Of a stretch of 64,000 nt of DNA, positions 47,759 through 49,882 are shown piece after piece. The position numbers and the translations under genes were made by a program. The DNA is taken from NCBI GenBank assembly GCA_964384235.1, contig CAYLJX010000001.1:22792-86791 (forward strand). The letters run 5' to 3'. How positions within the stretch are numbered: the first letter of the stretch is position 1; the number at the start of each line of letters is the position of its first letter. This DNA is from an uncultured Bdellovibrionales bacterium. GTDB lineage: Bacteria > Patescibacteriota > Minisyncoccia > Moranbacterales > UBA1568. The notes below the pieces were generated by a model. The model saw only the letters and a program-made list of their open reading frames with translations. It was not told where the DNA came from and searched no databases.

Positions 47759-49882
47759 ATGCACAAGATTTTGAAGCCAGAAGAAGCCAAAAAACGCATC
47801 GAAAAGCTTATCGGGGAACTGGATCGCCACCGGTACTTGTACCATGTCCTGGACCAGCCGGAGATCGCCGACGAGGCCTATGACTCACTCATGCGCGAGC
47901 TCGAGGCATTGGAGTGCGCCTTCCCGCAGTTCGTTTCTGAGACCAGTCCGACCAAGCGTGTCGGTGGAGAGTTGCTCAAGGCTTTTCGCAAGGTGGAACA
48001 TCACACCCGCCAGTGGTCGTTCGATGACGTCTTCGACTTCGAGGAGCTCAAAGCCTGGGATGAAAAGACCAGGCGTCTGTTGGGGAAATATGAAAAAGAG
48101 AACTCACTACTCACTACTCACTACTCACTACAAACTCCTCTTGAATATGTCTGTGAGTTGAAGATCGACGGACTCAAAATCATCCTGACCTATGAGCAAG
48201 GCGTCCTGAAGCGGGGGGCGACGCGCGGTGACGGGCGGATCGGTGAGAACGTGACGGAGAATCTGTGGACCATTCAGAGCATCCCGCTCCGACTGAATGA
48301 ACCGGTCGATGCGATCGTCGTGGGGGAGGCCTGGCTCTCGGAACGGGAACTCACTCGTATCAATGATGAGCGCTCCAAGACGGGAGAGGCGCTGTTTGCC
48401 AATCCTCGGAACGCCGCCGCCGGTTCCATCCGTCAGCTTGATCCGAAAGTGACGGCCAAGCGCCGGTTGGATTCGTTTATCTACGATGTGGACAGTATCA
48501 AGGCAGAAGGCAATAGGCAGAAGGCAATAGGATCGCAGATTGAAGAGTTGGAACTTTTGAAGAAGCTCGGGTTCAAGGTGAATCAGGAGTATCGGCTCTG
48601 CAAGAACGTCGAGGAGATCGAGGCATACTATCAGGAGTGGTGTCAGAAGCGTCACGATGTCCCGTACGGTCTCGACGGCATCGTCATCAAGGTGAACGAT
48701 CGCCGGTTGCAGGAACTTCTCGGCTATACCGGCAAGTCGCCTCGGTTCGGTGTGGCGTACAAGTTTCCCGCGGAGCAGGCGACGACGGTCGTGGAGGATA
48801 TCCAGGTGCAGATCGGGCGGACGGGGGCGCTGACGCCGGTGGCACATCTGCGGCCTGTCAAGGTCGACGGATCGGTGGTGAGCCGGGCGACCCTTCACAA
48901 TGCCGGGGAAATCGAACGGCTCGACGTGCGGATCGGCGATACGGTGATCCTGCGTAAGGCCGGGGATATCATCCCGGAGATTGTCGAAACGATGAAGAAC
49001 CTGCGTACCGGCAAGGAAAAAAAATTCGTGATGCCGAAGCAGTGTCCGGTCTGTGGTGGTCCGGTCGAACAGAAGCAGGTCGGGAAGAATGAGACCAGCG
49101 CGGCTCTGTACTGCGTGAACCCGGATTGTTTCGCGATGGAACGGGAAAAGCTCATCCATGCCGTGTCCAAGAAGGGGTTTGATATTCCGGGCTTGGGAGA
49201 GAAAATCGTCGAGCAGCTCATGAACGAAGGATTGGTGTCGGATATGGCTGATATCTTTGAATTGACGTCTGGCGACTTCGAACCTCTGGAGCGGTTCGCG
49301 GAGAAGTCTGCCGAGAAATTGTCTTTGTCAATCGAGAGGGCGAAAAATGTACCCTTTCAGAAATTCCTCTTCGCGCTCGGGATCCGGTTCATCGGGGAGG
49401 AGACGGCCGACGTCATCGCTCATGCGATGACGGAAGTCAAAAGTCAAAAGTCAAAAGTCAAAAGTTTGACTGATGTTATCGAACAATTTCCGAAGGTTAC
49501 AAAAGAAGAGTGGACGAATATCGATGGGATCGGGGAAAAGAGTGCGGAAGCATTGGTGGAATGGTTCACTGATGGGAAAAACCAGGAACTCCTGGAGAAA
49601 CTCCGGGCGGCCGGCGTGGATATCGTCATGCCCAAGGAAAGCTCGGTCAAGGAAAGGATATTCGACGGGCTGACGTTCGTTCTGACCGGCGAGCTTTCCG
49701 GCTTTACAAGGGACGAGGCGAAGGCTATGATAAAGGAAAAAGGCGGATCTGTCTCGTCTTCGGTCAGCCAGAAGACGGATTATGTCGTGGCTGGGGAAAA
49801 TCCCGGGAGCAAATACGACAAAGCGAAAGAGTTGGGAGTAAAAATCTTATCAGAAGATGAATTTAAAAAGCTGCTTGGTTGA
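47759..49882 (+). CDS. ligA: NAD-dependent DNA ligase LigA
   Basis: N-terminal Ia domain, KxDG adenylation motif (ELKIDG), tetracysteine zinc finger (CPVCGG...C..C), HhH and BRCT domains. Start taken at MHKILKP (47759). Confidence 0.95.

Follow-up and report, generated by a model that had tools for sequence, protein, structure and literature searches.

Heptanucleotides are the commonest class of long simple sequence repeat (SSR) in many bacteria, and slippage over units of about 7 nt has been proposed as their source, according to the passages of PMC4692102 and PMC4679880 that draw on Mrazek, Guo and Shah (2007); in those same passages such long SSRs (LSSRs) are mainly intergenic, and genes are depleted of units with a length not divisible by 3 (PMC4692102, PMC4679880). 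Here we analyze a 64,000-nt stretch of bacterial DNA (contig CAYLJX010000001.1; hereafter "the window", meaning the whole 64 kb) in which three tandem arrays of 7-nt units lie in frame within ligA, the gene for NAD-dependent DNA ligase, and we compare this gene with those of relatives in the candidate phyla radiation (CPR); the closest LigA proteins and loci all come from Candidatus Moranbacteria / Moraniibacteriota. LigA is normally the essential replicative ligase. The arrays are heptanucleotide SSRs: their short units stand in tandem, exceed what composition predicts, and change in copy number by whole units between relatives. As far as those passages describe prokaryotic heptanucleotide LSSRs, the likeness extends to the dominance of 7-nt units, a lineage-limited over-representation, the presence of several units per genome, and a proposed origin by slippage. 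Unlike those LSSRs, the Moranbacteria arrays reach, within one housekeeping gene, the density that they have in intergenic DNA; they are in frame in every case, and throughout the clade they occupy the same loops.

Repeats of this kind have been described as GGGAATC and GGGGAYT in Xanthomonas and Nostoc (PMC4692102) and as TAACTGA in Beggiatoaceae (PMC4679880). Like the arrays analyzed here, they consist of 2-6 heptamers, with about 4 favoured, and at a given locus close relatives differ in unit and in length. Unlike the arrays analyzed here, they have one dominant unit per genome, are intergenic or located in 5' untranslated regions, are under-represented in coding sequence, and have had G-quadruplex or translational roles proposed for them; the Moranbacteria units are many, none is G-rich, and their mode of about 4.4 units is explained by the reading frame.

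Three further systems invite comparison. The cyanobacterial short tandemly repeated repetitive (STRR) heptamers with embedded small dispersed repeat (SDR) mini-elements, reportedly described by Mazel et al. in 1990 and by Elhai et al. in 2008, are said to be known as intergenic repeats. They too comprise a few tandem heptamers and several unit families per genome, and GC-rich inserts of ~20-50 nt in Moranbacteria relatives recall the SDR of Nostoc; they differ in belonging to another phylum and in sharing no unit seen here, and a hairpin in the Moranbacteria inserts is not statistically supported. The Rickettsia palindromic elements (RPEs), reportedly described by Ogata et al. in 2000, are dispersed elements of ~100-150 nt with conserved sequence that lie in frame in protein genes. 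They share with the present case the tolerance of repetitive DNA in frame, in surface-exposed parts of housekeeping proteins, as peptides without known function, but the Moranbacteria arrays are 30-nt tandem microsatellites without conserved sequence. A study of tandem repeats in Borg elements reportedly found genic units with lengths divisible by 3. Those repeats, too, are perfect, fast-evolving and located in open reading frames (ORFs), where they add low-complexity or disordered segments; in contrast, the 7-nt Moranbacteria unit forces rotation through three frames and steps of 3 units. Literature searches that covered CPR and Moranbacteria yielded no account of heptamer arrays in these bacteria, and none of such arrays lying in frame where essential enzymes have conserved loops. 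The interest lies mainly in the clade-wide, gene-specific pattern, and not in the three arrays themselves.

Three heptamer arrays within ligA

The arrays were detected with Tandem Repeats Finder (TRF) and with our own scan for perfect runs, both of which agree with direct reading of the sequence (Table 1). Array 1 is followed by a degenerate unit, ACAAACT, that reaches 48138; array 2 corresponds to 4.4 heptamers with a perfect 14-nt higher-order period and 80 % matches at lag 7. In a scan of the window for perfect runs of at least 3 copies at periods 5-15, three runs of period 7 were found and none at periods 5, 6 or 8-15; 200 dinucleotide-preserving shuffles of the window gave a mean of 0.0 period-7 runs. 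None of the three ligA units occurs in tandem anywhere else in the 64 kb. The results show that the three arrays reported in an earlier note on this DNA are real, although their coordinates there were off by 1-3 nt, and translation of the ORF yields the intact frame and the peptides quoted there (e.g., SLLTTHYSL and KSQKSKVKS). The note had also asked whether the arrays might be artefacts of assembly. The Logan assembly of run SRR14023576 (L081), whose contig is on record in 3 samples, matches the window over 4839/4839 nt, all three arrays included, and the arrays, at ~30 nt, are far shorter than the reads. Because an independent assembly is identical and the arrays are shorter than the reads, an assembly artefact is unlikely.

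By its sequence, the host ORF is a full-length NAD-dependent DNA ligase. A database protein, P0001, matches it at 100 % (with a start 18 nt upstream, at 47741); Pfam recognizes all six families (Ia, adenylation, OB, Zn, HhH [helix-hairpin-helix], and BRCT), the Zn-finger match scoring 23.0 bits, slightly under the cut-off of 25.8 bits; the alignment with Escherichia coli LigA (2OWO) runs end to end, with E = 7e-156; and the KxDG motif is intact as KIDG, with lysine K135.

The arrays had been placed in linkers between LigA domains, and this placement does not hold: sites 1 and 2 are within the adenylation domain (residues 75-339), and site 3 is within the HhH domain (HHH_2, residues 535-612). 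At site 1, array 1 encodes N115-Q125, a loop between a helix (94-114) and the strand that bears the motif I lysine; E. coli LigA lacks 14 aa here, just before the KxDG strand. At site 2, array 2 encodes K248-G258, in a variable loop that is ~4 aa longer than in E. coli LigA. At site 3, array 3 encodes E559-S569, in a loop between two HhH-domain helices, with a 14-aa insertion relative to E. coli LigA. In an AlphaFold2 (AF2) model of the window LigA (46 homologues; mean predicted local distance difference test [pLDDT] score 86), all three array segments are predicted to be coil between regular secondary-structure elements and are local pLDDT minima. With site 1, residues 118-122, in the middle of array 1, are the only stretch of at least 3 residues with pLDDT <50; with site 2, coil 249-259 has a block pLDDT of 78 vs. 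89-95 in neighbouring blocks; with site 3, coil 560-569 has a block pLDDT of 69. The alignment and the model together indicate that the three array segments are surface loops inside LigA domains.

Directly after array 3, at 49465-49471, stands an inverted copy of its unit (TTTGACT), which can pair with any AGTCAAA unit. Owing to this adjacent inverted unit, which permits a 7-bp stem, the DNA fold of array 3 exceeds that of shuffles (z = -2.7); arrays 1 and 2 fold about as well as shuffles do (z = +0.7 and -0.2). Secondary structure was dropped as an explanation of the arrays because, apart from this one stem, the folds do not differ from those of shuffles.

Heptamer arrays across Moranbacteria

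The genome collection provided 80 ligA loci, 26 of them Moranbacteria-like (380 kb) and 54 from other CPR lineages (824 kb). The Moranbacteria-like loci hold 35 period-7 arrays that are perfect and have at least 3 copies, the other loci 2; at periods 8-12 no perfect array of at least 3 copies was found in either group, and at period 6 both groups have a few. With TRF, period-7 arrays number 85 in Moranbacteria (set including the window, 444 kb) vs. 33 in the other CPR loci. We conclude that, among tandem periods, 7 alone is enriched in the window and in Moranbacteria loci, and that the repeat class is specific to the Moranbacteria lineage of CPR, the other CPR lineages being essentially without such arrays.

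Addition of metagenome loci and removal of duplicates gave a wider set of 43 non-redundant Moranbacteria-like ligA loci (548 kb), in which the arrays show extreme gene specificity. The ligA genes hold 76 arrays in 92.6 kb (0.82 per kb), intergenic DNA holds 43 arrays in 64 kb (0.67 per kb), and all other coding sequence holds 4 arrays in 391 kb (0.01 per kb). The density in ligA is thus ~80 times that in neighbouring coding sequence and about equal to that in intergenic DNA. The 4 arrays in other coding sequence comprise two at the 5' edge of pilin genes, one of 2.3 copies in gyrB that is probably a chance match, and one clear case, in miaA, the gene for tRNA dimethylallyltransferase. Pilin genes also adjoin ligA: in the window, pilin-like genes with an N_methyl motif lie directly upstream of it, at 45817-47681, and in relatives heptamer or A-rich arrays lie directly upstream of, or in the leader of, the adjoining type IV pilin genes (L006 7577-7610; L003 9358-9376).

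An alignment of LigA from 120 relatives (60-78 % identity) shows hypervariable length and sequence, with 7-aa-periodic insertions, at exactly the three sites of the window. Examples of the inserted peptides are IPNSQFSIPNS, QHSTFNIQHS, FPISNFQFPNKSQ and KNQKSKIKNQK. A fourth hot spot is the Zn-finger region, and at the DNA level a fifth array position (offset ~2050) occurs in two loci only; in most genomes the ligA arrays lie at offsets ~300-375, 700-790, 1290-1420 and 1680-1850, with diverse units. Site lengths vary widely among relatives, and in 29/120 the site-1 insertion is absent. A strict quantisation of these lengths in steps of 7 aa was considered and not used as proof, since it is partial only (site 1 modes of 24, 31, 35-36 and 42 aa). 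The second gene of the window with in-frame heptamer arrays is miaA, whose arrays A and B occupy two different loops, both of them hot spots in 120 relatives. At MiaA site 1 the span between anchor residues ranges from 15 to 68 aa, and 24/120 relatives lack the insertion; at MiaA site 2 the span is nearly constant (19-22 aa in 102/120 proteins), and amino-acid identity at lag 7 is 24.6 % vs. ~5 % at other lags. In all, LigA has four or five array-bearing loops and MiaA has two.

Comparisons between relatives show how the arrays change. In L082, the nearest LigA relative (78 % aa identity), each of the three sites holds a perfect array of another unit (GATTCGA, GAATCAG-like and GAATCAA); at site 3 its array is in register with that of the window, and 2/7 unit positions differ in every copy. 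Lineage specificity of the insertions, as proposed in the earlier note, is upheld for their sequence, since the units differ from those of the nearest relative at all three sites, and fails for the sites, which are hot spots clade-wide. Two other ligA genes, of L009 and L014 (81 % aa, 78 % nt, and 62 % third-position identity), have a site-2 array in common, unrelated site-1 arrays, and Zn-loop arrays in L014 only. About 200 nt around the shared site-2 array (ligA offset 700-900) are ~93-100 % similar in this pair vs. the gene average of 78 % nt, which suggests a recent recombination tract between lineages. In miaA, the site-1 arrays of L163 and L165 (82 % aa identity) differ in length by exactly 21 nt, that is, 3 units, in agreement with the expectation that copy number in such genes changes in steps of three. 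At miaA site 2, most copies in L163 read ACGAGAT where the window, L164 and L165 have ACAAGAT, a concerted change; the unit ACAAGAT is retained in four genomes whose third-codon identity is only 44-47 %. For the window's own ligA arrays, whose close relatives carry other units, copy-number steps were judged from miaA and from other ligA loci.

Loop segments are also replaced outright. In L115 and L002, the ligA flanks are ~98-99 % identical, yet ~130 nt around site 3 are wholly different, with a GAATCAC array in one and, in the other, an AATTTCC array with GC-rich inserts, the FPISNFQFPNKSQ-type segment that is common in other lineages. The sequences indicate replacement of the segment by recombination. 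GC-rich non-repeat segments of ~20-50 nt split heptamer arrays in frame in relatives (e.g., CCTGCCCGAGACGTATCTCGCACGCGGCCAGG; L002 2621-2695; L115 site 3); these examples, in L002 and L115, were found by eye, and an automatic search for interrupted arrays gave no clear cases. For the 32-nt GC-rich insert of L002 (2642-2673), a hairpin is not statistically supported (z = -1.2). Loops of LigA and MiaA from different genomes share recurrent peptides such as LPVRQAG, HPELVEG and PARDVSRTRPG. The arrays had been called fixed, and this description does not fit the comparisons. Because the arrays are perfect despite near-saturated synonymous divergence, differ in unit and length between ligases that are 78-81 % identical, and have been replaced at one ligA site between strains that are ~98-99 % identical, they are young or continually renewed.

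The reading frame leaves a clear imprint on the arrays. Those in ligA peak at 30-33 nt (4.3-4.7 units), and intergenic arrays are scattered over 16-32 nt, plus two at 60-61 nt, a contrast that bears out the earlier note's argument that frame limits the permitted steps; the ligA peak is explained if only net 3-unit changes survive within the gene. In 26 translated loci (25 related loci and the window), every ligA copy is without internal stops. On the sense strand, 60/69 ligA units are stop-free in all frames, and the units are A-rich (43 % A); among intergenic units, 25/27 have a stop triplet on at least one strand. A fixed module of ~4.4 copies and a doubling series (10 to 17 to 31 to 59 nt) were both rejected, since the 30-33-nt mode is confined to coding arrays and is explained by the frame filter. 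The only long arrays, at 60-61 nt (~8.6 units; L017 2988-3047; L021 12085-12145), are intergenic and about twice the usual length; these two cases, and only these, hint at array doubling.

The window holds further arrays of the same 7-nt class, as the earlier note had said of its intergenic repeats: TRF finds four between genes (Table 1). Two of these flank both ends of the 194-nt spacer between two T2SSE/PilB-PilT-type ATPase genes. Units that contain GTATC occur in miaA and in the miaA-dnaE spacer as well as in the Wzy_C gene. A low-GC island at ~16000-28000 (40-43 % GC vs. ~54 % elsewhere), in which no heptamer array of at least 3 copies was found, encodes two large ORFs (998 and 1214 aa) and a Schlafen AlbA_2 protein, as well as AAA, HAD and NUDIX domains; the region may have arrived by horizontal transfer or may serve as a defence island.

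Table 1. Genes and heptamer arrays of the window (positions are those of the window).
Feature	Coordinates	Strand	Description	Basis
ligA	47759..49882	+	NAD-dependent DNA ligase, 707 aa	ORF list, translation, Pfam, 2OWO match, P0001
ligA array 1	48102..48131	+	(ACTCACT) x4.3, perfect	sequence, TRF, perfect-run scan
ligA array 2	48501..48531	+	(AGGCAGA AGGCAAT) x2.2, 14-mer AGGCAGAAGGCAAT, 100 % matches	sequence, TRF
ligA array 3	49434..49465	+	(AAGTCAA) x4.6, perfect	sequence, TRF, perfect-run scan
miaA	59408..60358	-	tRNA dimethylallyltransferase	Pfam IPPT E = 1e-62, translation
miaA array A	60146..60181	-	(ACAAGAT) x4 then ACAAAAAT (coding strand), 36 nt, encodes TRYKIQDTRYKN	TRF, translation
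miaA array B	59744..59779	-	36-nt module of array A with one mismatch, encodes TRYKKQDTRYKN	TRF, translation
Intergenic array	38810..38855	.	degenerate, GAATAAC-like; begins directly after stop codon of T2SSE ATPase gene	TRF
Intergenic array	38962..38998	.	TCATAAT x5.3, 73 % matches; just upstream of T2SSE-family gene starting 39006	TRF
Intergenic array	55109..55125	.	CTACTGC x2.4, short; between CYTH-domain gene and dcd	TRF, Pfam
Intergenic array	60440..60458	.	degenerate, GTATNNN; between miaA and dnaE; unit related to miaA unit, opposite orientation	TRF
Array in Wzy_C gene	3210..3250	+	degenerate, GTATC-type; within gene for Wzy_C (O-antigen-ligase-like) membrane protein	TRF, Pfam

Origin and maintenance of the arrays

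The explanation that we favour, with a probability of roughly 60 %, is that heptanucleotide microsatellites persist in a few permissive loops and are filtered to stop-free alleles that differ by ±3 units. The arrays (~4.4 units, ~31 nt) are, in this view, genuine microsatellites in structurally permissive surface loops inside LigA domains, belonging to a class that populates intergenic DNA plus very few protein loops in LigA and MiaA. A loop, once seeded, would stay unstable: its array would grow and shrink through misalignment of 7-nt units, unit variants would spread along it (concerted evolution), it would decay and be reborn with new units, and the whole loop segment would at times be exchanged by homologous recombination. 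Selection would pass net length changes divisible by 3 (±3 units, 21 nt, 7 aa), units without a stop codon in any of the three frames read, and loops where added polar or basic residues are harmless. Slippage would be the generator, and ancient seeding would account for the gene specificity. The loops appear permissive because E. coli LigA does without these residues, because the insertion at site 1 is missing from a part of the 120 relatives, and because AF2 predicts coil; the 7-aa-periodic peptides would then be near-neutral, most likely tolerated passengers and not functional modules.

Several results weigh against this explanation. The birth of an array in an essential gene is unexplained, since a single-unit slip is a +7-nt frameshift and a 21-nt slip requires an existing array. 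The perfect 14-nt period of array 2 is impossible to obtain by in-frame 21-nt steps, and 14-nt arrays are also present in relatives. The contrast between ligA and the 391 kb of neighbouring coding sequence is extreme, and permissive loops alone are insufficient to account for it, because other proteins have loops too. Identical units appear at different sites and in different genomes: AATTTCC forms 9 arrays in 8 genomes, at ligA sites 1, 2 and 3. That both miaA arrays end in a common degenerate unit points to copying more than to independent slippage, and the persistence of ACAAGAT at 44-47 % third-codon identity implies more constraint than a neutral passenger should show. Finally, no copy-number differences were seen between near-identical genome pairs, for which consensus assemblies were compared. 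Array birth, the 14-nt period, the gene specificity and the recurrence of units keep two rivals in play, one in which ready-made modules are copied and pasted and one in which selection favours diverse loops.

The first of these holds that heptamer modules of ~30-36 nt, sometimes with GC-rich inserts, are inserted into or converted between loci as copy-and-paste mini-elements, selfish DNA that survives where it is in frame, comparable to the RPEs or to the cyanobacterial SDR elements that sit in heptamer repeats. We consider it doubtful, although it meets several of the difficulties just listed. The two 36-nt modules of miaA are identical save one mismatch, the terminal degenerate ACAAAAAT included, and a related unit lies in opposite orientation in the intergenic region adjacent to miaA. 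Not only AATTTCC but also AAATTCC, AAGCGAC and AAGTCAA recur at non-homologous ligA sites in different genomes, and an AAGTCAA-type peptide is present at site 2 in P0057 and P0063; arrays with a 14-nt higher-order period are hard to build in situ while in frame; GC-rich non-repeat inserts split the arrays of L002 and L115; and LPVRQAG and HPELVEG recur within array loops of both enzymes. The arrays are nonetheless unlikely to be structured mobile mini-elements: no common termini were found, and there is no hairpin or other stable structure, apart from the inverted unit by site 3. Each of the three ligA units forms a tandem array at its own site and at no other place in the window, and no target-site duplication, transposase, recombinase or integrase was noticed beside the arrays, though no systematic search was made. 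The in-register difference at 2/7 unit positions of site 3, the 21-nt step, and the concerted unit change all fit evolution in situ.

The second rival holds that the arrays are kept because they rapidly vary basic or polar surface loops of LigA and MiaA, which would tune contacts with DNA or tRNA or permit escape from phage or host inhibitors, the variation being supplied by heptamer instability and recombination. We regard this adaptive diversification as unlikely. It draws on the array density in ligA, ~80 times that in neighbouring coding sequence and equal to the intergenic density, and on the fact that, across the 43 related loci, one other gene alone clearly carries an array, miaA, which likewise encodes a nucleic-acid enzyme; the Wzy_C gene of the window holds a degenerate array too. 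The replacement at site 3 between ~98-99 % identical strains is typical of diversifying selection, MiaA site 2 always has an array, of near-constant length, and ACAAGAT is conserved despite saturated synonymous sites. Alleles without an insertion are, on the other hand, common at LigA site 1 and MiaA site 1, the loops are low-confidence coil in the AF2 model, and no partner or inhibitor is known. The A-rich sense strand yields peptides rich in K, N, Q, S and T, but composition alone can account for such polar peptides. In a bolder reading, which we think has little chance of being right, a lineage-specific Moranbacteria process would write and rewrite 7-nt arrays, with small GC-rich inserts homing to them in a way that resembles the cyanobacterial STRR/SDR pair; it would be channelled to a few loops of LigA and MiaA and selected as a generator of loop diversity. 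Its signatures would be the gene specificity, the exchange of entire loop segments in strains that are otherwise near-identical, and a unit conserved in spite of saturated divergence.

A phase-variable contingency locus, in which single-unit changes toggle ligA on and off in the manner of the SSRs of Haemophilus and Neisseria, is highly improbable. Arrays inside an ORF, with a unit length not divisible by 3, are the classic architecture of such loci (PMC4692102). The arrays nonetheless do not behave as contingency loci: no OFF alleles were seen, ligA being intact in all 26 translated loci, and near-identical genomes, compared as consensus assemblies, showed no length polymorphism. The only length step seen between relatives is 21 nt, which is in frame, and ligA, a housekeeping gene that is normally essential, is not of the environment-facing type. 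Assembly artefact and chance low-complexity sequence, for which only the general risk of repeats in metagenome assemblies speaks, can be dismissed, chance by the shuffles and artefact by the identical independent assembly and the clade-wide recurrence of the arrays in dozens of independently assembled genomes.

Implications

Heptanucleotide repeats, known since 2007 to be the commonest long SSR class in many bacteria, have been scarcely studied and have been viewed as intergenic; here they are found in frame within an essential replication enzyme, in the same loops across an entire candidate-phylum lineage, with units that turn over completely between close relatives. The arrays explain the odd length variation of Moranbacteria LigA (685-790 aa), and array segments will cause trouble wherever CPR proteins are aligned, placed in phylogenies or annotated for domains. 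They provide a natural system in which to watch selection by the reading frame act on a unit whose length is not divisible by 3, through 3-unit steps, stop-free units and 7-aa-periodic peptides, and they raise a concrete, testable question, namely why ligA and miaA are targeted. If a loop-diversity generator does operate in Moranbacteria, the arrays would be maintained by selection, beyond tolerated slippage.

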